Counted from the stretch's first letter, positions 5,274-55,732 are shown. The stretch is DNA of 60,099 nt from an uncultured Candidatus Peribacteria bacterium (GCA_964424505.1 CAYRIQ010000001.1:1-60099); one strand, 5' to 3'. The notes: generated by a model not told the origin, from the sequence alone. Translations and numbers: made by a program.

Positions 5274-6074
5274 ATGCGTAAATATATGGAATATAATCAC
5301 AAAGATACTTCAACGCATCCTGTTTATCAGGATGAGATTGCTGATAATCTTGAAAATCAAACAGAAAAAATGAAAAATGATCTTGATGTATTCAAAAGCT
5401 TGGCTACCATATATTATGGTACTGATAAACCTAGAGATTACACCAAATATCTATCACAAAAAGGTTATGTCCCACAAGAAGATAATGAAAATGAAAAAAT
5501 TATTCAGTCAGAATATCTTTATATATTAGTCCATGTAGGTACAGGTGAGTTTGATAGTGAGGTATTTACTAGGAAAGATATACCAGAATATAAATGATTT
5601 TCATATAGTCCATTGCCTTTATTTGTGGTTGCATCACGGGTAGATCATGAAAAAAAAGATTATAATCCGACAAAGTTTCTTAATGATTATGCTAGTATAT
5701 ATGTCCCAAAATGATGACAAGTAGAATCACGCATAAGTTATAAACAAAAAGAACATGATATTAATTATGGAAATAGTAATGGTATTATGAATTATGAAGA
5801 TGCAATACTAGCACTACAAAATGCATATATTCATAAAATTTTCCCCAATGAAAATAGTTTTGAAAAATTTGTGAAGCAAATGAAAAAAATTGAAGATTAT
5901 ACCGAATTCAAGAGACGAATAAGCAAAAGAAAAACAGATATACAAGATGAAGACGAAAAAATATTTTACAGTAAAATGCTCTTATGTCTCTCAGATGTAT
6001 GTGATAAAAATCAGGAAAAAATGTATGAATGTATTCGCTCTTTTGATATACACAAAAAAATATTTACTAAATAA
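5274..6074 (+). CDS. Hypothetical protein (266 aa)
   Basis: ORFs 5274-5597 and 5787-6074 share a frame and are joined through three TGA codons with no TAA/TAG. I recognise no family. Confidence 0.6.
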
Positions 6075-6124
6075 CAGTCCCAACAACAGCAATTCTTTAT
6101 TTTTATTTATTAAGTAGTAACAAA

Positions 6125-6409
6125 ATGGCTTTAGATTTCGATTTATTTAGCGTAGTGGAGGTAAAAAATCCTAGCAAACATTGTACAGAAATATATTTTT
6201 CTGATCGCAAAGATAATGATTTGAAAACAACTTCACTGGTTATTTTTGAACAACAGATTAAGTATGTTATTACGGAAGAATATGATGAATATAAAAGAGT
6301 GAAAATATTTATTAGAGATGATGATGATCCGATTGTGATAGATTTTCATCCAGAAGAATATAATCTTTTTGAAGCATTTTTTCTGGCACTTTATAACAAA
6401 AACATTTAG
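6125..6409 (+). CDS. Hypothetical acidic protein (94 aa)
   Basis: Intact ORF in the same direction as its neighbours. No recognisable motifs. Confidence 0.45.
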   Translation: MALDFDLFSVVEVKNPSKHCTEIYFSDRKDNDLKTTSLVIFEQQIKYVITEEYDEYKRVKIFIRDDDDPIVIDFHPEEYNLFEAFFLALYNKNI

Positions 6410-9963: not shown

Positions 9964-11466
9964 ATGAAAAATTTTTTCACAGCAAAGACCAAAATCATCG
10001 ATATCCATGAAGGAGAAAATTTGGAAGTACTCATCAACGAACAAGATGCTCGGGAAGAAGGAATCACAAGTATGGATAAAGTCTCGCTTGTGTATGATAA
10101 CAAAGAATTTGTCTTCGATGTAAGCTTATCATCTCATTTTGTACAACGTTGAGAAGTAGGGATATTCGAAGATATTAGAGAAAAATACGAGATACCAGCT
10201 GGACAATTTGTTACGGTTTCATTTACCAAAAATAGTTCAGAATCACTTGATGCACTCAAAAAATGATTGACAGGAAAGAGGCTCAATAAGCAGGAAATAC
10301 TAGCTATTATGAAAGATATTTCAAATAATAGATTCACTGATATTTTGACGACGTACTTTTCTGCGATGGGATTTTTCTTTCCTTCACAAGATGAGGATCT
10401 GTATCGGATGGCTGAAGCTATGGCAAAAACGTGAGAAATGCTTCATTTCCCAGGGATTGTAGCTGACAAGCATTGTATGGGTGGTGTGCCAGGAAATGAA
10501 ACAACAATGATTATGATTCCATTACTTACTTCATTGGGGATCAAAATGCCAAAGACGTTTTCTAAAGCAATAACTACACCAGCAGCAACGGGAGAGTGTG
10601 TAAGTGTATTGATGGATATCTCATTTAGCAAAAAAGAAATAGAAGCTTTAGTCAAAAAAAATAATTGCTGTTTAGTACGAGGTGGAGGATTGGATCTTGC
10701 ACCAGCTGATGAAAAGCTTATCAAAGTAGCATATCCACTCTCTATGCAATCATACTCAAGAACTATCGTTTCTATTATGGCAAAAAAATATGCTATGGGT
10801 ATAAATCATTCATTGATTGATATCCCTGTTGGTCCTACTGCAAAAGTACCAGACATGAAAACAGCAAAATGGCTCAAGAAAAAATATGAATATGTAGGAA
10901 AAAAGCTTGGTATGAAGGTACATGTAGAGATGACACCAGCCTTAGAGCCTATTGGTGCAGGTGTAGGAGCAGTATTGCAAGTAAGAGAGGTACTGAGAGT
11001 ATTACAACAGCATGAAAAAAGGCCTATGGATCTTGAAAAAAAAGCAGTATATTTAGCAAGCAAAATTATCGAACTTGTAGGTATGGCAAAAGGTAAAGAG
11101 GCTGAAAAACTTGCGTATGGACAACTTATTAGTGGTAAAGCACGAGCGATGATGCAAAAAATAATTGGTGCACAACATGGGGATCCCAAAGTACTCTCTG
11201 AAACATTGAAATTAGCAAAAATACAAAAAAATATTGTAGCAGAAAAATCAGGTACAGTAAAAAATATTGATATGAAAATCGTAAATGTAGCTACGAGAAC
11301 ACTTGGTTCTCCACTTGATTTGCAAGCATGATTGTATCTTCACAAAAAACTTGGTGATAGTGTAAAAAAAGGTGAAGTAATGTACACCATGTATGCCAAT
11401 GATGAAAGTAAAATCAGACTAACCAAAGAATTTTTAGACGAAAAAAAGATGTATAACATCGCGTAA
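9964..11466 (+). CDS. deoA: AMP phosphorylase (thymidine phosphorylase family with AMPpase-type N-terminal domain)
   Basis: ORFs 9964-10152 and 10438-11331 join in one frame. Motifs: DKHCMGGVPGNETT, ITTPAATGE, RGGGLDLAPADEK, IDIPVGPTAK. About 85 extra N-terminal residues, as in archaeal AMPpase. Confidence 0.85.
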
Positions 11467-11478
11467 ACGCGAATAAAA

Positions 11479-11546
11479 AAGCCCCTCTCGGCGTCTATCC
11501 CGCAAAGCGGGAATAAAGAGGGGTTAGGGGTGATGTAAAAGGGAGA
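11479..11546 (+). repeat. GC-rich palindromic element E1 (half-copy; may also terminate deoA)
   Basis: gcccctctc-ggcgtcta-tcccgcaaagcggga-ataa-agaggggt-taggggtgatg. It aligns with the 3' half of the intragenic copy at 51991-52128 read in sense. Confidence 0.7.
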
Positions 11547-11606
11547 CAAAATAAGAAAAACAAAATAAGAAAAACTAGAAATTTATTTTACATAATAATT
11601 CAGTCT

Positions 11607-12611
11607 ATGACCGGTATAATAATGACCATAGGACCAGCTACCAATAGTGAAGCACAGCTTATCAGATGCTATGAAAATGGTGTCAGGATATTAAGGTTCA
11701 ATTTCCCTCATTATACCCAAGAAACCACAAAGAGAGATGTAGATAGTATTCATGCAGTTGAACAAAAAATTTGAGGAAAATTTCAATTGCTGCTCGATAC
11801 AGAAGGACCAGAAATTAGGACAGGATTTCTACAGACACCCATTAGCTACACTATTTGAGATGTGTTTAAAATTTATATCAAAGAAAGTGAAAGAGATACA
11901 AGGGGATTATTTTGTGATTATCCTTCATTAGTTGCTGATGTGAAAATAGGGGGAATCGTAAAAATTGATGCAGGATTGCTCGAAGCTGAAGTCGTAGAAA
12001 AATGATCAGAATATATAGGAGTTAAAGCATTGAATAGTTTTACAGTTGGCTCGAGAAGACATATTAATTTGCCAGGTATTCACTATAATTTACCAGGGAT
12101 TACATCAAGAGATAAAGAAAATGTATTATTTGCTATAAAAGAAAGATTTGATTATATCGCATTAAGTTTTACGAGAAAAGCTGATGATATTATTGAGCTA
12201 AGAAATTTTCTCAAAGCCAATGGTGGTGAGAATATAAAAATTGTGGCTAAGATAGAAAATCAGGAAGGAGTTGATAATGTAAGCACTATAATTGATGCGA
12301 GTGATATAGTGATGATAGCTAGATGAGACCTAGGGACTGAATTACCCGTAGAGATGATTCCTATCCATCAGATGAATATCGTCAAAACATGTAAAATAAA
12401 AAATACTCCTGTCATTGTAGCTACGCAGATGTTAGAATCTATGATTTACAATTCTGTGCCAACGAGAGCAGAAGTGAGTGATATTTTTTATGCAGTTCGT
12501 GAAGGCGCTGATTATGTGATGCTATCATGAGAAACTGCTATTGGAAAGTATTCAATTGAATGTGTTAAAGTGATGAATAAAGTGATTACTGAAGCAGAGA
12601 AATATAAATAG
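11607..12611 (+). CDS. pyk: Pyruvate kinase, barrel (A+B) domains only; C-terminal alpha/beta domain absent
   Basis: MTIGPAT, LRFNFPH, LLLDTEGPEIRTG, INLPG, IALSFTR, VAKIENQEG, MIARGDLG (Gly=TGA), ATQMLESM, MLSGETA. Ends at TAG 12609, about 334 aa. Confidence 0.85.
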
Positions 12612-13023
12612 ACTTATATTGTGGAAAGGTGAATATATGGAAATAGTAATTCCTCAATCTGTCCATCCTTTTCTAGTCTCTATACCACTGTTTAAATTTT
12701 TTAATTTGGGTAAGAATATGCGTATGTATTTCTCATCCATTTTTTTTTATTTTTTCAAAAGTTTTTTCAAAAACACGAGACTGATATCCATTGAGATATG
12801 ATCTTCACAAAACAACATCAATAATCCGATTATTTAGTTTTTGCTCGATATTTTGAAACATATAATATATAGTACATAAAATATTTATTTTCATAAATAC
12901 TATAAAAAAAACCTTGTAATTATCAAACCAAAAAACTAACAATAAAATTGTAATATATCTCTACGAGATGTAATTTGAACTACGTTCGTAATTCATCGTA
13001 ATTGCCAATTACGCGAATCAGAC

Positions 13024-13215
13024 AGGAGGAATCCATCCTTTTCGCTCCAGCGTCATTCCGGCAGCTTGCCCCGCAGAACTGCGTGGGTTAAGTGTTGCAG
13101 CCGGAATCCATACTACAGAAGCCAAAGAGTCTTTCAGTATGGATTCCCTCTTCCAAACATTGGCGCGGGAATGACGTCTAAGGGTTTATGGATTTCCCCT
13201 CAGGTTTAAGGGAGA
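13024..13215 (+). repeat. GC-rich composite palindromic element E2
   Basis: Nested inverted repeats: gcgtcattcc/ggaatgacg, ggaatccatact/agtatggattcc, ccgcag/ctgcg. The modules are collinear with the element at 53561-53695 read on the minus strand. Confidence 0.75.
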
Positions 13216-13252
13216 CAAACAATAAATTTTACTATTTATTATACGAATATTT

Positions 13253-14404
13253 ATGATCAAGACACTTCTTTCGTTACTAGTACTTCTATCGATGATAAGC
13301 ATTACCAACGCCTTTGATTTTTCTGGTTGTCAGGAAAAAGTATTTACGGTAACTGCATATTACTCTCCTGTAAGTGGCCAAGTATTTTATTATAAATCAA
13401 ATTTTCAAGCAGAAGTGACTCTAAACGGAGAGTGATATTTCGGTGCTTCTGGTAAAAAAGTTTTCAATGGTATGTTAGCATGACCAGCAACCTATCCGTT
13501 TGGATCAGTAATATATTTTCCTTGATTTGGCTTGGGAGAGATAGCTGATAGAGGAGGAGCAATCGTGCTTTCAGGTGAAAAATGACAAAAATTTGATCGT
13601 ATAGATGTTCGGATGGGAAAAGGAGAAGAATGACTTATTAGAGCACTTACGTTTGGTAAAAAAAATATGACCGGGCATTTCTGTGACCCTAAAATAATTA
13701 AGACATCACCAAAAGATACATTACTTCGAGACAATATTCCTGTACTCAAAAACTTTTTTGATATTGCACTACGGATTCAACAGCTCGAAGAAGGAAGAAA
13801 TGATATCCGAACATGGACATTACAAAAATATCTAGTGAAACTCTGATATCTCAACAAAAAATATCGAAACGGAAACTATGAGACAAATACAAAAAACGCA
13901 CTTTGTAGATACCAAGTCGTCAAAAAAATTGTTGGAGCAAAGCACCCTGATTGTTGAGCTTTTGGTAAAGCAACAAGGTATACGATGAAGCTTGATGTAC
14001 AAAGTAAAAATCTTTTGCCTAGCAATTTATATGCGACAGGAACTTTCGCTTCGATTGTAGATGCAGCAAAATACTACAACGGCTATCCGAGACAACCTTC
14101 TAAACTTTCAAAACCTTTTAACGTTTTAACAGAGGAAATAAAAGTATCTAAGCCCAAAGTCTTCTTGTTTTACAGAGCTTACACAAAATGACAACAATCC
14201 TCAGAGATAAAAATCCTACAAAATTTTTTACAATCACAAGGGCTTTATAGTGGAGAAATTGATGGTATCTATTCCAAAATCACTACAAATGCCGTCTATG
14301 AATTTCAAAAAAAATATTCTCTGATTTCTGATGACGATCCATTAAATTTGAGAGGATACCTTTGACCAAAGACGAGATCAAAGATCAACGAATTAAAAAT
14401 ATAA
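13253..14404 (+). CDS. Secreted 3D-domain (MltA/RlpA-like barrel) protein with two PG_binding_1 repeats
   Basis: Signal peptide MIKTLLSLLVLLSMISITNA. 3D-type motif EIADRGGAI...DRIDVRMG. C-terminal LQNFLQSQGLYSGEIDGIYSKITTNAVYEFQ. The frame is joined through many TGA codons. Confidence 0.7.
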
Positions 14405-27980: not shown

Positions 27981-28053
27981 ACTTTGTTGCAAGTTAAAAC
28001 ATTAATATTTCAATCTTTCAACTTTTCAATATTTTAACATTCTAACTTTTTAA
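27981..28053. repeat. Periodic-word hairpin H4 3' of rpmA (TTTCAA/TTGAAA-type words, 8-nt period)
   Basis: atttcaatctttcaacttttcaatattttaacattctaac. TCAA recurs every 8 nt. Confidence 0.65.
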
Positions 28054-28056
28054 GTT

Positions 28057-28292: not shown

Positions 28293-28365
28293 TGCAAAAG
28301 TGGAAACATGGGAAAGTGGAAAAATTAAAAAATCTTTCAACCTTTCAATCTTTCAATGTTAGAAG
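28293..28365. repeat. Periodic-word hairpin H5 3' of rpmF (GTGGAAA words, then TTTCAAC words)
   Basis: aaagtggaaacatgggaaagtggaaaaattaaaaaatctttcaacctttcaatctttcaatg. Confidence 0.65.
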
Positions 28366-28392
28366 TTGGTCTTTAGTTTCTTAGTTTTCCAT

Positions 28393-29137: not shown

Positions 29138-32100
29138 TTATTTTGAATTGTTTCTACCAATAAAACTTTGAATTTCTGCCAGACTACTAAAATATCTTAC
29201 TTTCAAAAGTTTGTACGACATATATCACCTATCAGTTTTATAGATAATATATTCTTTCCCATTTGGCGCGATATATGATTGTGGCGAAAAATAAGTATCT
29301 ACCTCATGACTTCGAATCGCTTGAGGAATATTTTTACTGTCTATATACGTACGCAGTGTTGCAATACTAGTAAAATATTTAACAGTAGTAAATTCATTGG
29401 ATGTATATCATTGTCAGTTATAATATAGAGAATATACTTTTCCATTAGGCGCAATATGTTTGCTAGGATCTGTATTGGTAAATGACCATGAAGTAGTACT
29501 GTATGTATTTACATTTACATGACAGTCACCAGGATTTTTTGAGTCTATATATCTGATGAGACAATCACGATTTGCAAAATATGTCGCGATAGTAAAGTTT
29601 GGAGATGTGTATGCTAGTTTTAGATTGTCAAAACTAATACTATATTCCTTGCAATTGGGTGCAATATGTGCACTAGTATCGATGCTTCCATTTCATGTAT
29701 CATTACCTATTTCTCCATTAATAAGGTCTTCTAAATATTGAAGATTACAGTCATTGGTAAAATCAATTTCATCTGCCAACATACTTTTCATAGTAGAAAG
29801 GAATTCATCAAATTTATTTTCATCCTCACTATAATTTTCAACCAAACTATCAAAAATTATCTGAATAGATTCTTTGTCAGTATCTGATAAACTACATGCA
29901 TCATCTGTTTCTTGCTTGGTTTGTATACTAAATTCTAATAATCTATTGGCTATACGTAATGTAGAAGAAATAGTTTTGTTATATTTACTACTTGACCTCA
30001 TAGTAATATATATATCATCTCCATTTTGTACAAATGTACCAGTTCATATATCATTACCATTTTTATAAAGTGTTGCATCTCCCTCAAGAGTAGCCCAAAT
30101 ACTCACTCAATTTTTGAGAGTATCAATGGTAATTTCATTGGAATCATAATATGTTCTAAGATTAGCATCTTCTTTAGATACAAAATCTCGATCATCAAAT
30201 GTTCAAATCCTAAAATATCCTGTATTGCTTCGTATAGAGAGATTTCCCTCTTTATCTTTAGCTTGCATTCTCCAGTAATATTTTCAATCAGAAACATCAA
30301 AATCAGTACTTGGTGATCCAAAAGTTCCTGTTGTAGTAACTATAAATCCTGTATGTATAGTATCTACAAATGTATTGTCTGTAGCAATTTCATAAAAATA
30401 TCATCCGATTCATGATCCAGTATCTACACTTGCATTCCATTCAAACCTAGTAAAAAATATTTCTTCTCAACTAAGTGGATAAGTGATCACAGGAGTAGTC
30501 GGTGGTATATTGTCAGATCATTTAGTCGTTATCGTAAATATACCAGTTCCTAGTCAGATAGTCACATATCAAGTAATAGTCTGTAAATATCCTGAGCTAC
30601 TTTGTGTAAGTGTTTTTAGTTGATTGCCATTATATACAAGTAATCATGTTGTTCATGAAGAGGTGCAGACAGAACCAGAATATATTTCCAACCATCCAGA
30701 AGTAGTATTTGGAGTAAAGGTAATAGATGCCAATACTCAAGTCTCTATACCATTAACAGTAATAGTATTGCCAGTCAAAATGCCAAGAGGCACATTAGTA
30801 AGAGCAGCAAATAGTAAAGAACCAGTTGTAGGTGTTTGAGAGTATCATCTTGTTGTTACTATAAAAGGATTTATAAGAGATGATCATATTGATATGTTCC
30901 CAGTTATAGTCTGATTATAGCCTGTTCTAGTAAGTATATATATTTGTAGAGTATCTCAATTATTTACTATTCCTGTAAGTCCTATAGCATGTCAACTAAT
31001 AATAAGATATCCTGATGTAGTGATTGGATCAAAACTTAAGGTCACAGGTACAGGAATATTAAGTACACTAGCAGTGTATATATTTGTAGTATATCAGGTG
31101 TTTAACTGTGTTCATCAGCTTCCCAAAAAAGACACTCATTCAGGTGTACTATCTCGGATAGCAAACACTTCTGCAATATACTTGCTTGCATCATATTGTC
31201 AGGGAATTTGTATAAGAGACCCATCGGTTTCATATGCATAAGGAATTTTTTGTTTGTACATATGCAATCAAAATGCATAATTGACAGAAGTATTTCCAAG
31301 GAGTGATTGGAAAGTAGGCACCATACCTATTGTTGTACAATTACTATTAAGTAGAGTAGTTGTACTACCAGAAAGTGTAGGATTTGTAGCATATAAGCAT
31401 GATATGAGATTGCTTCCCGTAGACAAAATACCTCCATAAGGAAAAATGCCAGCCATACCTACAGATAAATATGTATCATTACCGTTGGTTCAATTAAAAT
31501 GCTCTCAATTGTCAAATAATTGTAACTCTCAATAATATGTATTTCCTATAGAACTATAAAGACTCGCAATACCAACAGTATTATTGTATAGTCTTATGTC
31601 ATTAAATATATTTCCAGAAGAGTTTTTAAGTGAAATACCTGCAGTGCTGTTATTATATAGAGCAACCCTATTAAAAACATTTTCTTGTGTAGTGAGATCT
31701 CAAAATATACCTATAGCATTATTATATCATTGCACATTATTTATAGTGTTTCTTTTTGAACCATTAGCAAACCAGATTCCGTAAGAGCCATTATTGTACG
31801 TTTGTGTATTGTTAATTACATTATAATTAGAAGTATAGTATAGATGAATACCAGCTGTAGAATTATTAAATGTTTGGCTATTTATTATAGTATTGTGATG
31901 TGACCCCAGTCCAAGAAAAATTCCATATCAGAGTGTATTGTATACTTGCACATTATTAATAGTAGAATTATTGTTGGCTCCATCAAAAAAAATTCATTTA
32001 CGTATTGCTGGAGAATATGCTACTGCATGATAATACAATCCATCTATACTAAGTGTATCAAGTATTATATTGCGTTTATTGTAAGCATACAATAAGCTGT

Positions 32101-33797: not shown

Positions 33798-36467
33798 TTA
33801 TCGTTTGCTTGGATTGTTCTTGTTTATATGGGTCTTAAGTTCTGAAAGTGTAATATAGTAGCGTACTTTCAAAAGTTTATACGACATATATCATCTATCT
33901 GTTTTATATATTTTGTATTCTTTCCCATTTGGTGCAGCATAAACAATAGGAGTAAAACTATCATCAATACTATGTTTCCATATTTCTTTCGATGGATTTC
34001 TAAGGTCTATAAACCTTTTTATATTTGCTAGAGAATCAAAATATTTTGGACTAGTAAATTCTGTAGCAGAAAACCCACCATACTGCCCGATAAGATGATA
34101 TATTTTCCCATTTGGTGCAATATGTTTCATAGAATCTAATAGATCAGAAGTTCGGAAATTATTACTATACGTATTGATATGACAATCTCCTGGATTATAA
34201 TAATCAATATGCCTAATAAGTGATTCGCGATTTATAAAGTAATATCTATTACTCATTTCAGGAGCATAATATGCTTGTTGAGTAGTGTCATATCATATAC
34301 TGTATTCTTTACAACTTGGAGCAATATGATTGCTGGTATCAACGCCTTCATTATCAAAATCATCTGCTATAAGATCGAGTAGATAATTTAGAGTACAACT
34401 ATTATTAAGTTCTGTTTCATCTTCTACCATATTCTGAAATGTAGTAAGAAAATCAGCATATTTTGAGATATCATTGTTGTATTCATCTTTAAGCTCTTGA
34501 TAAATATCATCAATAATACTTTTTTCTGATGTACTGAGTGTACATGAACTTTTTTTTGTACTTACAGAAAATGTGCCTGTATGTCCAAGTATGCGAATTT
34601 CAGAAGTTACCGTAGTATCATAAGTATTACTTGAAATAAGTTCTATATATACAGTATCTGAGGGAGAAACTAAACCTGTTGTCCCATTGCCTCAAGAGTT
34701 ATTGTTGATGAAAAGCATTCATTTTGAAATAGAAATCAACGTAGGTCAAGTAAGTCCAAATATAATAATAGGATCAGATTTATATATTTTATTGAGGTCT
34801 ACATTTCTCAACCAAAGTGTAGGTGTAGCAAAGAGTATACCAGTCCCACCACTACAATATTGTGAAGAAGTAGTAAAACTAACCATGGTTCACGAAGAAG
34901 TATTTCATAGATAATCTATAGCTGATATCCTCATATAATGAGTTCATAACGGAAGTAGAGAAGTACTTAGTTGAATAGCTGTTGTTGTATTTGGTAAAGT
35001 TCCACTTAAAAGATTTCCCGTTACCATACCCGTATTATTATATATGTCATATCTATAATGGCTAAGTCAAGCACCACTATCACTAGCACCACTTCGAGTA
35101 ACAGTAAGAGGTAATGATGGACAAGTGAATATATTGTTAACTGGAGTTATAATGGATGGTAAAGTCGGTGGAGTAGTATCTACATATACTCTTTTGGTGG
35201 TTCAAGTATAGGTACAAGTCCCTGTTGTATAACGGTGAGAAAAATAATTCCATCCATTTGTAGTAAGCAAGGTAACAGGAGTAATTATTCATGTCGTTAT
35301 ATAATTGCCCGATAGTGGCTGTTGGATGAAATCACCAGAAATATAAAAATGTGTAGGGTTACTAGCCAATAATTGTAACATAGTTCCTGTTGTATTGGTA
35401 TAATAACCAAAAGAATTTGATATGACAGTATTGCCTGGTGATGAAGTAAACGTAATGTCTCCTTGAAAATTTGGGACACATCATGTCGATTGAGGAATGG
35501 TTCCTGTTTGTACAGTGCCAGTCGATCATACATGAAAAGGTATTTGTGAACCACATTGAGGACCTCTACCATCAGATCACAATACCGTACATGTTGCAAA
35601 ATAATCTCATGAAATTAAGGAATTACCTGTAGCTCGTAGTCCTCATACTGTTTGTTGAGATAGTAAAGGTGAAGTATCTCCGGAACGAATAATAGTAAGC
35701 AAATAGTTACTTGCATTTAGTCATTGACACAAAAATGTAATATTTTGTCATTGATCGATACGTAATGGAGATATTTCAAAATTTTGACACCAAGGAATAT
35801 TTACACTGAATTCAGCGATACCACCATTAGTATCAAATATAAATCATGAATGGACTTGTCAGGTAACGATTTGTAATGTATGTCCAAAACTAGCTCCACT
35901 GATAGTGTTTGTAGTAAAATTATATTGTACTCCAGCAATCATACGAAATGATTGATCTCATGAAATACTATGATCTATTTGACCATAAATATCATTAGTA
36001 TTTGGAGTATATCAGCTGACCCCTGTACAGTTTGTATAAAAACCTCACGTCATAGTTATATCAGTATATCCTCATCCATTGCCACGGAGTAAAGCAAGAT
36101 TCCCTGAATCCAAAGGCCAAATTCTTCGACCTCTTTGGTTATTGTAATAAATTCATTTCAAATGAGTGGAACAGCTTATAGCTTGTCCATTTATACTGAT
36201 AGGTTGAGACGGAGAAATTTGTTCTCATCCTTGCCAAAACAAAATTCCGACAAAATCATTTCCTCAAAATTTAAAATGTGCATTGGAATAATATCATGTG
36301 GTATTCAACCAAGGAAAGATTGTAGAAAGATCATTTTGAAAAGGAATAACCTCAGCATAAATAGATTTAAAAGTTGCGAAAAATACGACAAGAAATAAGA
36401 TCATTCACAAAAAAAGTTTAGCTAAGCGAGATATCTTGCGATTGCAAAGAAGAGATGTTTTGATCAT
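33798..36467 (-). CDS. Large secreted protein (about 889 aa) paralogous at its C-terminus to the downstream giant gene
   Basis: The frame was scanned codon by codon from 36467 to 33798 and contains no TAA/TAG. Signal-peptide-like LFLGMILFLVVFFATFKSIYA. Ig-like PPTLP...DSGAGLSHYRYDI. The C-terminus matches the 29138-29700 product. Alternative ATG at 36491. Confidence 0.8.
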
Positions 36468-49588: not shown

Positions 49589-50923
49589 TTATAATTTTTT
49601 TAGTAAATCAGTAATTATGCTATTGTACACGTTCATACCTGTATCTGTGAGTCTGAGTTTAGTTCCATCTCGCTCAATTAATCATTTTTTTTTATAAATA
49701 GATAACAAGGATTCGTAGGTAGGTACAAGCATAGGAATAAATTTTTTAAGATCAGCGATTCCTTCCCTAGTTCTGAGTCTGAGAAAAAATTCTTCAATTA
49801 ATATATCTGATTTATTCAGCACATGGACTTCTTTTTCATCGACTCGATGTCATTCAAGATATTGCTTGATATCTCATGTATTAGTTCGGCGAATGCCGAA
49901 GGGTTGAAGGGTTGAAGCGTTGAAATGTTGAAATGTTTTTGGATTGTTTATTATTCATTGCTGATTAAAAAATGAGCTCGCAGACAACCCCAATCCAAGA
50001 TAGTTTTCCATATTCCAGTAAATCATATTGTGTATAGATGCTTTACCTGCTGCAGCAAAATTTGAGATTTCATATCTCATAAGTCATGCATCTTCGATCA
50101 TTTCTTTCAAGAGCAAAAATTCCTCCATAATCTCTTCATCAGTTCCATAGTATGTCGGTGGATAAGTTACCTCACCCCCAACCTCTCTCCCATTTTTAGA
50201 GAGGAGTGACTTTCCTTCTCCATAGCTTGCCCCGTATATTTCACTGCGGGGTAATAGGGAGGGTGAGGGTGGGGTAGTATTGCTTAGTCCTTCTAGTGTA
50301 TATAAGGAAATACTGTCAACATATCCGCTTGCAAGAAATTTTTGAAAAAAATCACGTTTAAATTCATGTCGCAATTGTTTGAAACCATTTTTGCTGACTT
50401 GGAATTTTCCAAATGCAATAAAATCAAAATTGAAGACATTGTTTCCTTGTTTGAGTTTGATGAGTGATCTCAGAAACTCTACAATACTTCAGAAATTATA
50501 TGCTCTTCAAGCCAGTTTTAGAACTTCATCATCAAAACTTTGAATGCCAAAACTATATCTTAGTCTAGAAAGTTTTGGATATTTTTTATTCAATGTTTGT
50601 ACAAAGGTCAAAACTTCTTCTTCTGGATATGGATTTAATTCGATACTGAGTTCTGCTAAATCTTCAAGATTAAACTTGGTTTTTATGTATTCGATGATAT
50701 CAATGATCCTTGTAACTCACATTCTACTAGGTGTTCCTCATCCAAAATATAATGTTTTCAATGCTTTGTCTACCAAAGTATTTGCATAATGATCGATTTC
50801 TTTTTTCAATGCTATAATATAGTCATCGATTAAGGTATCAGAAGAATCTACTGGCATACTATTGAAGGAACAATAAGCACATTTGCTTGTACAAAAGGGA
50901 ATATGAATATAAAGACTCAACAT
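49589..50923 (-). CDS. hemW: Radical SAM heme chaperone HemW / HemN-like protein carrying two insertions
   Basis: LYIHIPFCTSKCAYCSF, YFGGGTPS, YEISNFAAAGKASIHN. One frame over 445 codons. It contains GC-rich element E3 and an 8-mer periodic tract. Confidence 0.85.
49898..49935. repeat. Periodic-word tract H7 inside the hemW CDS (four TTGAA words at 8-nt spacing)
   Basis: gaagggttgaagggttgaagcgttgaaatgttgaaatg, translated on the minus strand as ...TFQHFNASTLQPF.... Confidence 0.6.
50166..50277 (-). repeat. GC-rich palindromic element E3, in frame inside hemW
   Basis: gttacctcaccccc ... gggtgagggtggggta terminal inverted repeats with internal hairpins cctctct/agagagg and ccccg/cgggg. Read as NTTPPSPSLLPRSEIYGASYGEGKSLLSKNGREVGGEVT. 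Confidence 0.8.
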
Positions 50924-50951
50924 ATATAGTTTTAAAATGACTAAAAAATAT

Positions 50952-51830
50952 TTATTCTCTGCTTAAATCGAGACCTTCTCCGTATTCGAATTTGCCGAGT
51001 TTGAGTCAAATTTTATCTTTTTTGCAATACTGTTTATAATCGAGTACTTTTTGTTTTCTATTTTCAATCGGTTCTTTAGTCATCATACCAGGACCACCGA
51101 TACATCATCACTCACAGGCGAGGATATCAAGGAATCTGATATTTTGATTGTTCTTAAATTTTTGAAATCCTGCATCGAGATTCGCTGGACCATCAACGAC
51201 CAGTATTTGATCTTTAGTTAAAATTCATTTAATATGGAGACTATCAGCTACGCCTCATGCAAGGGGATAGACTTTGGTATAATCATTATAAAATTTATCA
51301 AAATCTGGTGTGCCATCTTCCGTCACGGAATACGTAAATTCTTTCGGTTCGATAGTATTTTCTTTGGTATAATTGAAGATATCTTGCAGTTCTTTAAATG
51401 TTATCGCAAAATCGATGCCATATTGTTTCGCTTCCATTTTCTTGGTAAAACATGGTCCGATAAAAAGTGTTTTATATTCCGGACCATACGCTTTCTTTAC
51501 AAATCTATTCATCACTACCATAGGTGACGCTACATCGATAATATATTCTTTTAGCTCTGGATATTTAAACTCAATCATTTTGACAACTGTAGGACAGTTG
51601 GGACAAATATATCTTTTATCAGGATTTTCTTTTAAGATCCTCTCATATTCCATATTGATTAATTTCGCCGCATAGGTGAGCTCTACAACCTTCTTTATAC
51701 CGATTGATTTGAGGTTAATGATGATTTCGGGATAAGAGAAATCTCCAGGAAAACTTGGTGCAAGCAAACAGACGATTTTCTCGTGTTGGAGAGCATCTAC
51801 GAGAGTCTGAAGTTCTGGAGTAAGAGACAT
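50952..51830 (-). CDS. [FeFe]-hydrogenase H-domain-like protein (minimal, no accessory ferredoxin domains)
   Basis: H-cluster-like motifs: ICPNCPTVV (degenerate motif 1), FIGPCFTKKMEA (motif 2), LDILACEGGCIGGPGM (motif 3; its two Gly are TGA). 292 aa. Confidence 0.7.
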
Positions 51831-51857
51831 AGCTAAACAATTACGTTGATAAATATA

Positions 51858-53533
51858 TTATACTGTGTATACAATTTTATCGCCAATTTCCAACTCATTT
51901 TTTTTCTCAAAAGTTCCAATGACTTGGTTTAGAGAAATCTCATCATAAATATCAATTTCCGGACAATGTAATCGTGGCCTGACGAGAAGAGTTACCTCAC
52001 CCCCGACCCCTCTCCACTCTCCCGCAGATATTGACGGGACAGGCTCCGAGAGGGGTGATTTTCCCTCTCCATAGCTTGCCCCGTATATTTCACTGCGGGG
52101 TAATGGGGAGGGATTATGGGTGGGGTAATTAATTTCCATAATATACCCGATTTCTTCTTTTCATTTCCTCGCTTCTTCTTGCTCAAGTGTTTGTCTATTT
52201 ACGAGCTGTTTTATTTTAGTAAATCTTGCTCTGATCGTAGTATATTCCACTTTTTTGTCTAATTTACTTGAAGCAGCCAAAGGCTCGTCGTGATATTCAA
52301 ACAACGCGACATTATCAAATCTTGTTTCGTTGACAAACTTCATGAGTTTATCAAAATCTTTCTCCGTTTCGCCGGGGAAACCAATGATAAGATTCGTTCT
52401 AAGAAATCTAACCGGAAATATTTTTTTAATCTGATTCAAAAAATTTTGAATATATTTTTCATCGTATGCCGAATCATTTTCGAAATCTCTAATTTCTTCA
52501 TTTCATTTGAAATTATCGTTTCTCAAATTGTCGGCATTCCTCAATCATCAAAAAGAACTGCGTTTCACTTGCTCTTTTTGCGGTTGAGGGAAAAATCTTC
52601 CCATTCTTTTCAAGACCGGCGAACTGATGTGTTGTAAAGGGATATCAAAATATGGTATAAACTTTTTCAATTTTTTTAGCTCCTCGATTTGACGTAATGT
52701 TACGATGTCGGGATACAAGTAGAGGAGTCTATAGGTGAAATCACCTTTTATTCTGTCTAATTTTTTCAATAGGTCCAATAATTTCGGCTCCCCATAAAGA
52801 TCAGTTCCATATCTCGTAGTGTCTTGTGCGATAAGAATAATTTCTTGTATTCACGCATCAATCATCTGTTGTGCTTCAGTGAGAATTTTTTCTATGGGCA
52901 AAGATTGCTGTTTTCATCTGATCGCTGGGATGATACAAAAGGTACAATGATTATCACATCATTCGGCGATTTTGAGATATTCAAATTTTTGTTCCAGGTT
53001 GGTATATACCCTTGGCGAGTTAGCAAATTCAAAATCTCCAAACGTTTTACTATCGTATCATTGCATAATATTTTTCAACGTTACTGTATTCAAATCTCCT
53101 CGTGATAAGTAATGAAGGTTTCAAAGTGGTTTTGTTACCTCACCCCTACCGCAGGCAGGCCCGGCCCCCCTCTACGGAGTGGAGATGGGTGATTTTTTAT
53201 CTCCCTCTCCATACCATGGGGAGGGATCAAGGGTGTGGTAAGACTTACTAACTTTTTATAGTACTGAACTGCACATCAGAGCAAGTATACGGTCTTCTTA
53301 GCTTTCAAAAGTTTTTTCACAGTTTCGTCAGCTTCATCTCTGCCTGAAGAAATAAATCCACAAGTATTCACAAAAACTATTTTAGTTTTCGGATCAAAAG
53401 GATCGGTAAAATAGTTCAATTGATAGTCAGGAGTCTTGATACTTATATCAAAAAGTCTACCAAGAAAATATTGGCTATCGACCAGATTTTTGGTGCATCA
53501 GAGGTTGATGAGTGAAAAATTTAGTTGTTGCAT
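51858..53533 (-). CDS. rimO: Ribosomal protein S12 methylthiotransferase RimO, interrupted: carries two GC-rich elements and a frame break in one of them
   Basis: The N-terminal frame (MQQLNFSLINLGCTKNLVDSQ...) stops at TAA 53135 inside element E5. The rest ([35 protein letters not shown], TRAM tail) is in another frame, open from 53171 to TAA 51858. Confidence 0.8.
51991..52128 (-). repeat. GC-rich palindromic element E4, in frame inside the rimO TRAM region
   Basis: About 85 percent identical by eye to E3, plus an extra tcccg...gcggga hairpin. Read as YPTHNPSPLPRSEIYGASYGEGKSPLSEPVPSISAGEWRGVGGEVT. Confidence 0.8.
53134..53241 (-). repeat. GC-rich palindromic element E5 in the rimO inter-domain linker, coincident with the frame break
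   Basis: Same termini (gttacctcacccc ... gggtgtggtaag). It lacks the 30-nt ccccg hairpin module and contains a C6/G6 run at 53165-53170. Confidence 0.8.
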
Positions 53534-53560
53534 ATATTACAAAAAAACAATAATTAAAAT

Positions 53561-53695
53561 AAACAAATCCTCACTCTCCCCACTTTAGCGTCATTCCCGA
53601 CTTGATCGAGAATCCAAGCTCAATAGTATGGATTCCCATTTTCATGGGAATGACGCCGAGACGGGGAGGGTTGTCAAGGGTCGGGTGAGTTTGTT
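53561..53695 (-). repeat. GC-rich palindromic element E6 between uvrB and rimO
   Basis: cctcactctcccc ... gggtcgggtgag termini. Inner gcgtcattccc/gggaatgacgc and gaatcca/tggattc stems shared with E2. Confidence 0.75.
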
Positions 53696-53714
53696 AAAAA
53701 AATTAAAATAAAAA

Positions 53715-55268
53715 TTATTCGTTGCTAAACACTTCTTCTATACCGTCTTTCAAGCTATATCACTCCATAAATTCTTTCAGGTGTGGTTTTTTTTTGATCA
53801 ACGTATCTATACTAAGGATGAGCGAATCATAATCTCAGGACTTGGGATAGACATAGGTAATCGGATCTAAAAGGCCAGTCGGTCTGATGATTTGCTCGAC
53901 GATCTTATCAGACAATTTCAGTTCATATTCACTAGGAGTTGCTGATAAAAAAATAGATTTCGTATCTTTTTTATGCTTTTTAACCAAAGTAATTAACTGA
54001 TTTTCTCCACGTGCTTCTTTCATTTTTTTATACATATTGAAAATTTCCACATGAGTGTTTGATACATTTGAACTGATATCAAAGGCTTGATCGAGAACAA
54101 TATCATTGATATCTTTCCATCATAAAATTCCCTCTAGCTCCTCAAATCTCAATGGTCTATGATCTACCGCTGAAGGAAGTCTAAATCCATATTTTATCAG
54201 ATTTGCTTTTCTTGATCTATCACCTCCAGGCATTGCTCTCAACTGTGGTAAGGTCATATGTGATTCATCGATAATCAATAAGAAATCATCGGGAAAATAG
54301 TCAAAAATAGTATTTGGTGGTTCTCATGGCAATCTATTATCAAAGTAGAGAGAATAGTTTTCGATACCGTTTACGAATCACGTCTCCTTGATCATTCTGA
54401 TATCATATTCCACTCTTTTTTTGATTCTCTCTGCCTCCACCAACATTCATTGTTTTTCAAATTCTTTTACTCTAAGCTCTTTTTCTGCATTCATTTGTTC
54501 CAAGATAGTATCTATATCAGAAATATCTTGCAAAAACTGCGTCGCTGGTCGGAGCGTTACTTTATTTTTATTTTCTTTATGTTCAAAAGTCAGTGAGTCT
54601 TTGAGTTCAATCAATTCAAGGGTTTCTTCATTGAAATGTAATCTATAGACAAATTTCTCTGTACTGGAAAAAATATCCAGAATATCTCCTTTAAATTCAA
54701 ACATTCCATGTTCTATCTTAGCAAGGATAGGTTTGTATTGCATATGGAGGAGCTGTTTTTTGAGCTCTTTAAATATATATTGTTTCCCGACTTCAAATTG
54801 CAAACAGTTTTCTTCAAAAAATCTTTTTTGTCAGAGTCCATAAAGTGAAGAAGCTGAAGCGACAACAATTACGTCTTTTCTAGTCAATAATGATGCCATA
54901 GTTGCAAGTCTATACATTTCGATCTCTTGGTTGATAGTTGCCTCTTTTTCTATGTATACTCATTGAGCAGGGAGATAGCTTTCTGGTTGATAATAATCAA
55001 AATACGAGACAAAATAATGTACAGCATTATTCGGAAAAAAATATTTGAATTCTGTAGCAAGTTGTGCAGCAAGGGTCTTATTATGCGAGATGATAAGTGT
55101 TGGTTTTTGAAGATGTTGAATCATATTTGCCATCGTAAAGGTCTTTCCAGTTCCTGTAGCTCAGAGGAGAGTAGCCTTATTTTTTCCACTGGCAAAAAGC
55201 ATTTTTATCTCCTCAATAGCTTTGATTTGATCTCCAGCTGGTTTATATGATGATTGTAGTTGAAACAT
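53715..55268 (-). CDS. uvrB: UvrB N-terminal portion only (ends just after the RPTGLLDP motif); C-terminal helicase domain and UVR domain absent
   Basis: [12 protein letters not shown] (Gly=TGA), [57 protein letters not shown], then about 40 unrelated residues and TAA 53715. The frame was checked codon by codon. Confidence 0.8.
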
Positions 55269-55381
55269 ATGAAGCATATATAATATAAATGAGTATACCT
55301 TATAGAGTTTTTTTTATAAAAATCCACCAGTAACTGAAATAAATTACTCTATTCTATGTAAAAAATTGTTACAATTGCGAC

Positions 55382-55437: not shown

Positions 55438-55662
55438 ATGCCAAAACGTAAACGAATTCGAATTCCTGTTGCAATATGCAACAGCAATCCCAGCTACACG
55501 CATGTTGGGCATTATGGTTCTAAAACCATAGACAATCAACAAGATCAAAGGTGTATCATAAAAGATCAAATCAAAAATGATGTTTTAGGTATGTTTAATC
55601 GATTTGGGATGAAAATTTTTTTATGAAATATTGCCGTGTGAATTTCACACGGTTTTTTTTAA
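55438..55662 (+). CDS. Small basic hypothetical protein (74 aa); could instead be a non-coding transcript
   Basis: MPKRKRIRIP.... The ORF reads through two TGA codons into the terminator hairpin. It is bounded by a strong promoter and terminator. Confidence 0.3.
55634..55660 (+). terminator. Rho-independent terminator
   Basis: ccgtgtg-aattt-cacacgg plus T8. Confidence 0.8.
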
Positions 55663-55663
55663 A

Positions 55664-55692
55664 CAAAAAAAACTCACCGAAGTGAGTTTTTT
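55664..55692. terminator. Bidirectional terminator (A-run, ctcac-cgaa-gtgag, T-run)
   Basis: Symmetric A/T runs flank a 5-bp stem. It serves convergent rplI. Confidence 0.7.
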
Positions 55693-55732
55693 ACTCCCGC
55701 GAAGCGGGAATATGATAAGCATGGTTATGCTT

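Follow-up and report, generated by a model that had tools for sequence, protein, structure and literature searches.

In-frame GC-rich palindromic insertions in rimO and hemW of a code-25 bacterium and their probable relationship to a DUF559-bearing insertion element

A stretch of 60,099 nucleotides from an uncultured Candidatus Peribacteria bacterium (GCA_964424505.1, CAYRIQ010000001.1:1-60099), here referred to as the window, contains a set of GC-rich palindromic segments, three of which are located within the genes for a HemW-like and a RimO-type protein. The window has a GC content of 31.6% and reads TGA as a sense codon, as judged from the coverage by open reading frames (ORFs), which climbs sharply under genetic code 25 or 4. 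With the Fe-hydrogenase-like gene at 50952-51830 as the query, the relatives found were metagenome-assembled genomes (MAGs) of the Absconditabacterales/SR1 group, which show 54-87% amino acid identity. The segments of main interest lie in or near a row of minus-strand genes consisting of nusA, the hemW-like gene, the Fe-hydrogenase-like gene, a rimO-type methylthiotransferase gene and a short uvrB-like gene. Two of these genes serve as hosts for the palindromes, namely the gene for the HemW/HemN-like radical-SAM protein (49589-50923, minus strand; 444 amino acids including the insert) and the gene for the RimO/MiaB-type methylthiotransferase (51858-53533, minus strand), which as assembled is represented by two ORFs at 53135-53533 and 51858-53066.

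Six GC-rich palindromic segments are present in the window at 11479-11546, 13024-13215, 50166-50277, 51991-52128, 53134-53241 and 53561-53695. These positions and the elevated local GC content, 0.50-0.60 as compared to 0.316 for the whole window, agree with a preliminary description that was made from the window alone, and the view that they are repeated, nested palindromes with inverted termini was also borne out. Specifically, the terminus GTTACCTCACCCC was found in an exact form at three positions (50166, 51991 and 53134), and a minus-strand match at 11527-11539 has 2 mismatches. These 4 occurrences compare with an expected number of 0.21, and none of 100 shuffled sequences reached 4. Furthermore, the regions 50199-50263 and 52048-52112 are 94% identical. 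When the proposed folding check was performed, five of the six segments folded better than shuffled sequences (z-scores of -3.2 to -8.2), the exception being 11479-11546 with a z-score of -1.2, and single strands of the elements were found to fold end to end. A scan for perfect 8-nt GC-rich hairpins revealed nothing further. Known structured RNA genes were rejected as the identity of these GC islands, since no element was matched in Rfam searches of 49900-53900 and 11400-13300, even at E-values of up to 10. Intrinsic terminators were rejected as well, because none of the elements consists of a hairpin followed by a T-tract, the only two terminator-like sites being located at 55633-55692. What did not hold was the assumption of a single element family: at least two unrelated families of repeats, here named A and B, are represented among the six segments, along with mosaics of both. 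Family B is characterised by a CGTC tag and will be described after family A.

As judged by alignment and inspection, family A includes the three copies located inside genes, a solo unit (11481-11539) and the shell that surrounds the core of the segment at 53561-53695. It is recognised by CCTCACC/GGTGAGG termini with adjacent CCCCTCTCC/GGAGAGGGG hairpins. In the orientation of the host genes, which corresponds to the minus strand of the window, the layout starts with TTACCCCACCC, a hairpin of the type CCCTCCCCAT-loop-ATGGAGAGGG and a short linker, followed by a second hairpin of the type CCCCTCTC-loop-GAGAGGGG and, lastly, GGGGGTGAGGTAA(C). The termini TTACCCCACCC and GGGTGAGGTAA pair mutually and represent terminal inverted repeats of elements that are about 90-140 nt long and have no coding capacity of their own. 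The copy in the hemW-like gene (50166-50277, minus strand, 112 nt) lies between the radical-SAM core and the HemN_C domain, and reads ...NTTPPSPSLLPRSEIYGASYGEGKSLLSKNGREVGGEVT... in the frame of its host. The copy in the C-terminal, TRAM-region part of rimO (51991-52128, minus strand, 138 nt) is in frame and stop-free; it folds with -81 kcal/mol (z-score of -8.2), and both of its main hairpin loops hold a nested, related mini-hairpin. The third copy (53134-53241, minus strand, 108 nt) is found in the rimO linker between the UPF0004 and radical-SAM domains, and includes a run of six C residues on the plus strand at 53166-53171, which corresponds to a G6 run on the coding strand.

It had been proposed that the three copies inside hemW and rimO are translated. 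Their positions and sense orientation were confirmed, and the hemW copy and the C-terminal rimO copy are indeed open and in frame with their hosts, as is evident from the readings ...PSPSLLPRSEIYGASYGEGKSLLSKNGREVGGEVT... and ...PSPLPRSEIYGASYGEGKSPLSEPVPSISAGEWRGVGGEVT...; an example of a predicted insert-encoded peptide is SEIYGASYGEGK. This does not apply to the copy at 53134-53241 as assembled, in which the reading frame changes and then stops at a TAA codon that is supplied by the element's own gTTAcc terminus. One extra G in the G6 run restores a continuous RimO of 558 amino acids, so that the split of rimO represents either a real one-base slip or a homopolymer sequencing or assembly error. 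Similarly, the claim that all copies are co-oriented with transcription stands for the three in-gene copies, which are in the sense orientation, but the orientation of the intergenic copies is not callable.

The rimO and hemW genes were located in 17-24 syntenic loci (designated with L numbers) by tblastn under code 25. All of these rimO/hemW loci display three length-hypervariable points, always in frame: site A in the UPF0004/radical-SAM linker of rimO, site B in the TRAM region of rimO, and site C in hemW, where the radical-SAM and HemN_C domains join. Minimal 'empty' versions occur in some relatives, IMEI-DKGT-LVVRP at site B being an example. Family A elements occupy sites A, B and C in L004 and site B in L005 and L001, while a remnant is present at site C in L017. 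The window element at 53134-53241 equals the site-A element of L004 plus a mini-hairpin of about 14 nt (CCTGCCTGCGGTAGG). In a total of 414 kb of SR1 DNA, profiles of the element ends gave matches at sites A and B of rimO and site C of hemW, and nowhere else.

Relatives contain a longer, DUF559-bearing counterpart of the in-gene elements that is not visible from the window alone. This long form, which measures 474-477 nt between the host anchors, was encountered at site B in L001 and at site C in L004, and short forms are carried by L004 and L005 at rimO site B. The long-form inserts are in frame and read YPTLNPSPLHG...DUF559...WRGxGGEVT. Their internal AT-rich ORF encodes a DUF559 protein (Pfam E-values of 5e-30 and 5e-35; PDB 3HRL, 3.9e-15) with conserved E..D...H and D..R residues, which is predicted from its sequence to be a nuclease. 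DUF559 has been grouped with Vsr and the intron endonuclease I-Bth0305I in the classification of PD-(D/E)xK proteins (PMC3424549). A protein search with the L001 insert yielded ten close relatives of 71-90% identity, which start inside the element and run into the host protein because they were called under code 11. In SR1-type contigs that were re-read under code 25, complete in-frame elements are present within an ORF of 1183 aa for LeuRS and within one of 685 aa for a RumA/TrmA-like methyltransferase, and one free-standing SR1-type copy is located upstream of a gene for a PIF1-type helicase. The nucleases of these further SR1-type copies are 72-85% identical. Free-standing copies were altogether seen in L006, L071, L080 and L149.

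The full-length copies in L001, L149, L151 and L152 are exactly 469 nt each, from TTACC to GGTA. They are composed of TTACCCCACCC plus a hairpin (CCCTCCCCAT/ATGGAGAGGG), the AT-rich DUF559 ORF, a second hairpin (CCCCTCTC/GAGAGGGG) and the right terminus GGGGGTGAGGTAA, and thus have the same ends as the short elements in the window. In the case of rimO site B, the element stands in place of about 2 codons that the empty allele has. No direct repeats are present in the flanks of seven insertions, and neither a target-site duplication nor a shared target sequence was found. In the SR1 copies, the strand that is antisense to the host gene folds 2-4 kcal/mol better, as C·A becomes G·T. A conserved G·T wobble was considered as a Vsr-type recognition site, but this is a weak hint only, since the asymmetry was not seen in other lineages.

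Maintenance of the reading frame is a general property of these insertions. Eleven distinct insert lengths at rimO/hemW sites A, B and C and in leuS and rumA are divisible by three, namely 96 nt at site A, 141, 474, 93 and 96 nt at site B, 117, 477 and 36 nt at site C, plus those of the leuS and rumA copies. The only length that is not a multiple of three is the 110 nt in rimO of the window, which is mended by one G in the G6 run. Depending on the insert, translation of the element's DNA gives WRGxGGEV or GEGxGVR. The use of different reading frames across insertions indicates that the constraint is on the nucleotide sequence and not on the peptide.

Sites A, B and C also accommodate inserts of other kinds. 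Relatives without family A elements often hold unrelated in-frame low-complexity or tandem-repeat inserts at these sites (L002, L005, L006, L007, L009, L011, L012 and L018), such as GGTTGCAGGTTCC...CTCCTTGCTCC (read as QGARSKEQEPATWNLQP), PSIPSIPSIPS runs and NEEQGMRNEEQ. These sites are either insertion hot spots or very permissive loops for several types of repeat. In the window, rimO has a fourth in-frame insert at about 52455-52590 (minus strand), which encodes about 45 aa (PQPQKEQVKRSSFGGLRNADNLRNDNFKGNEEIRDFENDSAYDEK). It is AT-rich and palindromic, with a CCTCAATCATCAAAAAGA/TCTTTTTGCGGTTGAGG palindrome and an outer ATGCCGA/TCGGCAT pair, and is common only to L004 and L007, the other relatives having 3 codons at this position. 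Lastly, the SR1-type LeuRS (L150, 4321-7869; L151, 5077-8625) also contains a NUDIX hydrolase domain as a mid-protein insertion, as evidenced by a Pfam NUDIX match on a gene fragment and by the sequence that is visible in the code-25 ORF.

The distribution of the element is not limited to SR1 and extends across phyla. The right-end motif TGGAGAGGGGNNGGGGGTGAGGT was detected in at least 120 metagenome stretches, the contigs of which have GC contents ranging from 28% to 70%, and in 33 viral contigs. The usual unit has the form CCCCTCTCC-loop-GGAGAGGGG-NN-GGGGGTGAGGT, and occurs either solo or with an inverted copy 60-150 nt away. Among the 120 matches listed (716 kb in all), 9 stretches contain a DUF559 ORF, which immediately adjoins the motif in 6 of the 9 and is bracketed by inverted hairpin/CCTCACC-type units in 8 of the 9. 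Six of the 9 are uninterrupted in-frame insertions in full-length ORFs for LeuRS (L041, L046, L092, L125 and L143) or MetH (L030). For the other three (L071, L080 and L125), the motif matches elsewhere, the copies being free-standing or at a second site. LeuRS is occupied at two different sites, both of which are filled in L125, and SR1 shares the occupancy of site 1, which lies between NWIGKSxG....F and VYTTRPDT, with another lineage. Moreover, GC-rich hairpin units in inverted orientation likewise flank three DUF559 genes (L153-L155) that were chosen regardless of the motif.

Two further observations relate to these insertions. In the LeuRS insertion of L046 (about 5700-6150), the left terminus is separated from the DUF559 ORF by about 7 tandem copies of a 42-nt unit with a GGAGAGGGG hairpin arm, which maintain the frame and read GEGSNLNPEVPS[K/R]. 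In other phyla, DUF559 with hairpin-type flanking peptides is found inside proteins with flanks similar to type I restriction-modification subunits (P0012, P0014, P0017 and P0053), which suggests a still wider range of host genes. For P0014 this assignment is based on ResIII/SWI2-SNF2 Pfam matches and for P0053 on an N6_Mtase match, the other assignments having been made by eye.

The DNA of the elements is highly conserved. Across genomes and sites it is 81-95% identical, with 89-95% identity in the clearest pairs (90% for the window and L004 at site A, 89% for L004 site A and L005 site B, and 93% for the window and L004 at site B). The corresponding values are 73-84% for the flanking coding DNA and 50-65% for third codon positions. 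The window copies at sites B and C share a nested mini-hairpin that is absent from the copies of other genomes at these sites, which points to exchange within the genome. On the tree of host genes the presence of the element is patchy, L001 being filled at site B and its sisters L003 and L024 not. Nuclease copies in different host genes show dN/dS values of 0.07-0.25 at dS values of 0.4-2.2, and the termini barely change over the same comparisons. These findings indicate that selection maintains the nuclease as a protein and the termini as DNA. In the nuclease tree, the SR1 copies cluster together whatever their host gene, suggesting that within a lineage the element hops between genes and does not track one site.

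We consider it probable that the family A elements of the window are non-autonomous, translated, nuclease-less derivatives of a selfish insertion element that bears DUF559. The best-supported reading of their lengths is that these copies are kept in frame by selection on the host genes. The element would insert in sense orientation into surface loops or linkers encoded by protein-coding genes. As the insert is stop-free and its length preserves the frame, the host protein and the nuclease could be translated as one polypeptide, and no intron or intein would be needed. The GC-rich termini would then represent cis-acting DNA sites, and the nuclease a trans-acting function. The DUF559 protein may cut DNA and drive copying, either through homing-like gene conversion into empty alleles or through occasional ectopic insertion. 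Short forms may have arisen by internal deletion and could be mobilised in trans. Such ORF-less copies would retain the termini only and persist as translated palindromes of 90-140 nt, as in the window.

A more tentative idea, which we consider possible but still somewhat doubtful, is that hairpin-bracketed DUF559 (Vsr-like) nucleases constitute a previously undescribed class of selfish elements that reside in frame in essential genes, occur across phyla and shed short palindromes resembling repetitive extragenic palindromic sequences (REPs) and Rickettsia palindromic elements (RPEs). If so, these elements would do without an intron or intein by being translated as a domain of the host protein, DUF559 would be the missing mobiliser of widespread GC-rich palindromes, and the window elements would be its footprints.

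Several observations weigh against a derivation of the window elements from a DUF559-borne element. A tblastn search of the window detected neither a DUF559 ORF nor a remnant of one. DUF559 is not known to be a transposase, and neither a target-site duplication nor a common target accompanies the insertions. The grouping of nucleases by lineage does not fit a classical, strictly site-specific homing endonuclease. The hairpin units of L154 and L155 are 'inside-out' relative to the SR1 arrangement and, therefore, the architecture is not uniform. No DUF559 gene is nearby in 111 of the 120 listed metagenome stretches or in any of the 33 viral contigs, and many of their units are solo. Lastly, the junction sequences fit both the loss of an ORF from the long form and the insertion of an ORF into a pre-existing palindrome.

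Some of these observations would also be expected if the palindromes came first, which is the main rival explanation. In this case, REP/REPIN-like palindromes would be spread by a host or unlinked enzyme or by hairpin-mediated repair, DUF559 genes would home into their centres, and the window copies would be landing pads that never had a nuclease. The preponderance of short and solo units over DUF559-bearing ones, and junctions that suit insertion as well as deletion, are consistent with this scenario. The same is true for the variable orientation of units around DUF559, for the single short-form junction GGGAAATAAAAAATCACCCC that is found at site A of L004, site B of L005 and site A of the window, as if the short form propagates, and for the co-occurring CGTC-tagged REPs, which have been reported without a dedicated transposase (PMC3733652). 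However, the termini and the nuclease travel together across lineages in which the nucleases are only about 40-50% identical, and they therefore appear to form a long-term unit. Strong constraint on the termini across genomes of 28-70% GC is also unexpected for a mere nuclease target, and no alternative mobilising enzyme was present in any locus seen. We therefore regard a primary origin of the palindromes as rather unlikely, and favour the derivation from a DUF559-borne element. [quoted passage not shown] Terminal inverted repeats, small size, several copies and an absence of coding capacity would all be typical of MITEs, and with a window of only 60 kb the IS could lie outside; none of the 16 window ORFs that were scanned against Pfam in a non-exhaustive search encodes a transposase. 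Nevertheless, the MITE label that had been applied earlier is not established in its strict, IS-derived sense, because there is no target-site duplication. Moreover, no ORF other than DUF559 was found between these termini, either in the SR1 loci (414 kb) or in those from metagenomes, the four full-length copies of exactly 469 nt leave no room for a transposase, and a 2024 review of prokaryotic MITEs never uses the word 'endonuclease'.

It is very unlikely that the elements are beneficial to their hosts, either as flexible Pro/Gly/Ser-rich linkers or as structured RNA signals, such as terminators, stabilisers or regulators. The inserts are indeed situated in linkers and loops and encode P/G/S-rich peptides, they fold strongly, and solo units often follow genes. 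On the other hand, the frame in which the DNA is read varies between inserts, close relatives lack the inserts, and near-identical units occur in unrelated genes and in genomes of 28-70% GC. The afore-mentioned absence of Rfam matches and of T-tract terminator signatures likewise argues against a role as RNA signals. The sharp GC steps at the borders of the segments and the frameshift at a homopolymer could in principle reflect chimeras, in which GC-rich foreign reads were joined into an AT-rich bin during assembly. This doubt can be dismissed almost entirely, because independent MAGs and metagenome contigs from different studies, including L001, L004, L005 and L017 for rimO and hemW, carry homologous elements at identical codon positions. 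Additionally, the host ORFs continue in frame on both sides.

RPEs are among the known systems that come closest to the in-gene elements. They are palindromic repeats of about 100-150 bp that are inserted in frame in unrelated housekeeping genes and kept in the protein (PMC10969869), presumably, as may be the case here, in tolerant surface regions (review PMC10969869). The likeness to RPEs that had been suggested for the window is supported, and it may be literal for the GCGTCATTCC...GGAATGACGC module, which has CGTC-REP features. RPE-4 and RPE-6 belong to the same CGTC superfamily as this module (PMC3733652), the match having been made on described features and not on sequences. The three in-gene elements differ from RPEs in that they have no CGTC tag and have other termini, and in that their host is a code-25 SR1 bacterium. 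They also have a longer version with a nuclease ORF at the same sites, whereas the MITE review mentions no endonuclease or autonomous partner for RPEs (PMC10969869). REPs and their REPIN doublets associated with RAYT transposases (REPtrons) are likewise short GC-rich hairpins, solo or in inverted doublets, that bracket a presumed mobiliser gene (PMC3733652), and intragenic copies are known for them too (PMC3733652). Unlike in REPtrons, the bracketed gene encodes a DUF559 PD-(D/E)xK nuclease and not a Y1/HUH (IS200/IS605-like) tyrosine transposase, the termini have no GTAG tag, and the whole unit, including the gene, can sit in frame in a host ORF.

Homing endonucleases and inteins represent a further point of comparison, since the present nuclease falls in the same Vsr/DUF559 branch of PD-(D/E)xK enzymes as the Vsr-like I-Bth0305I family (PMC2677866, PMC3239194). 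As in homing elements, the same position in conserved genes is occupied across lineages and the occupancy is patchy among close relatives, as exemplified in SR1 by sites A and B (rimO) and site C (hemW), and by LeuRS site 1 in SR1 and another lineage. In-frame insertion is shared with inteins. However, neither an Rfam intron nor a Hint domain was found, and Pfam detects only DUF559-type families in the 157-aa insert. The junction residues vary, the ORFs run continuously through the element, and the insert, unlike an intein, appears to stay in the protein. Intein, intron and translational bypass were therefore all rejected, the conservation of frame arguing for read-through. Integron attC sites, as suggested by the GTTAC start, were rejected too, since the termini do not fit the GTTRRRY core and there is no integrase. 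Homing genes also do not need the conserved inverted hairpin termini that are present here, and the nuclease identity of 72-85% among copies in five host genes resembles the behaviour of transposons more than that of site-specific elements. GC clusters in the mitochondrial DNA of yeasts and other fungi provide another parallel, being GC-rich palindromic mobile clusters in a very AT-rich genome, some of which are in frame in coding sequences. These clusters are organellar and unrelated in sequence, and are not known to have an associated nuclease ORF of the DUF559 type.

RPEs and intragenic REPs have been known for 25 years, but their mode of movement is unclear. With the present findings, such a repeat family gains a concrete candidate partner in the form of a small nuclease gene that is flanked by the same termini, experiences purifying selection and, in more than one phylum, occurs in frame in LeuRS, MetH, RimO, HemW and a RumA-like enzyme. 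If this partnership is true, it would provide a function for a large Pfam family of 'unknown function', and explain both odd P/G/S-rich peptides and 'fused' DUF559 domains in database proteins. It would also draw attention to recurrent errors in the gene calling and annotation of MAGs, in which inserts are mis-split, especially under code 25. The question of mobility can be put to a direct test with a single purified protein and a small number of DNA substrates. In the open-access literature, we found no paper that links DUF559 to inverted hairpin termini or short repeat derivatives, or that reports DUF559 residing in frame in LeuRS, MetH, RimO or HemW; the DUF559 link is probably new, although this is not certain. 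Intragenic palindromic repeats and the CGTC module have already been described (PMC10969869, PMC3733652), and the window represents a new host lineage for this known kind of element.

The family B module has the structure GCGTC-ATTCCCGA-loop-TCGAGAAT-CCA ... TGG-ATTCCCAT-loop-ATGGGAAT-GACGC. It constitutes the core of the segments at 53561-53695 and 13024-13215, and recurs in L006, L009 and L012. CGTC-tagged REPs are defined by the CGTC tag, a stem of 8-9 bp starting with AT, a loop of 4-5 nt, a CCA tail and an arrangement as dimers in opposite orientation (PMC3733652). Their superfamily includes Neisseria dRS3 and Rickettsia RPE-4 and RPE-6, and, according to Di Nocera et al. (2013, PMC3733652), has no transposase dedicated to it. 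All defining features, with an 8-bp stem ATTCCCGx, are displayed by 53590-53654 and by the core of 13024-13215 (13052-13175), as well as by the modules in L012 and L006, but not by the in-gene elements at 50166-50277, 51991-52128 and 53134-53241. The CGTC-type modules of the window are a second, already described kind of REP that nests with family A. In the survey of CGTC REPs, which covered five phyla, the superfamily was not reported for SR1 or the candidate phyla radiation (CPR). A further difference is that the repeats in the window are nested in, or decorated by, other hairpin modules, and that the three in-gene elements are of another type.

The intergenic mosaic element in the uvrB-rimO spacer (53561-53695) combines both families. 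Its outer shell, with a CCTCAC...GTGAG terminus and a GGGGAG/CTCCCC stem, is family A-like and resembles the termini of the free-standing DUF559 element in L006, and its core is the CGTC-tagged REP dimer at 53590-53654, which reads CGTC-ATTCCCGA-cttga-TCGAGAAT-CCA ... TGG-ATTCCCAT-tttc-ATGGGAAT-GACG. According to tblastn coordinates, the same spacer is only about 6-20 nt long in L003, L005, L011, L014, L021 and L024. The segment at 13024-13215 is an intergenic CGTC-tagged REP dimer with the core GCGTCATTCCGG...CCGGAATCCATAC...GTATGGATTCCC...GGGAATGACGT, extra inserted hairpins and outer GGAATCCAT/ATGGATT repeats, for which there was no Rfam match. The solo 'right-end' unit of family A (11481-11539, plus strand) is located directly after the stop codon of the upstream plus-strand gene, and consists of a hairpin CCCCTCTC...GAGGGG, a nested TCCCGCAAAGCGGGA mini-hairpin and then GGGGTGATGTAA. 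Loops of both families hold nested mini-hairpins of the CCCGC...GCGGG type. One such hairpin, CTCCCGCGAAGCGGGAAT, is found by itself at 55694-55712; its stem is of the same type as the arms of CGTC REPs, and it adjoins two ordinary terminator-like hairpins.

The motif AAGGGAGACAAA[A/C]AATAA is present directly 3' of both the solo unit and the REP dimer (11539-11556 and 13208-13226, plus strand), about 30-55 nt upstream of the starts of the next genes, which are a pyruvate kinase-like gene at 11607 and a gene at 13253. This motif may belong to the elements, or may represent a common feature of leaders or promoters.

With respect to the neighbouring genes, the uvrB-like ORF at 53715-55277 (minus strand) encodes only 520 aa, in which Pfam recognises the N-terminal helicase and UvrB-interaction parts, but neither a C-terminal helicase nor a UVR domain. 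A truncation of uvrB by the adjoining element at 53561-53695 was considered and rejected, because 20 related loci keep a 518-aa form with the identical ending ...EEVFSNE. The short uvrB is therefore a clade trait and does not represent damage caused by the element.

Lastly, Rfam at the gathering threshold gave only an L10 leader for the whole window, and no tRNA or tmRNA genes were found in it. An AT-rich repeat, TTGAAAAGTTGAAAGGTTGAAAAAT, is present together with tandem copies shifted by 8 nt in the intergenic regions at 2180-2220, 27997-28056 and 28331-28367; at one of these three places it is inverted and 90% complementary over 41 nt. The two very large ORFs of 1535 and 897 aa on the minus strand have 3' ends (29143-29269 and 33809-33935) that are 76% identical over 127 nt. 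These ORFs also have internal repeats in common, and probably encode paralogous surface proteins.

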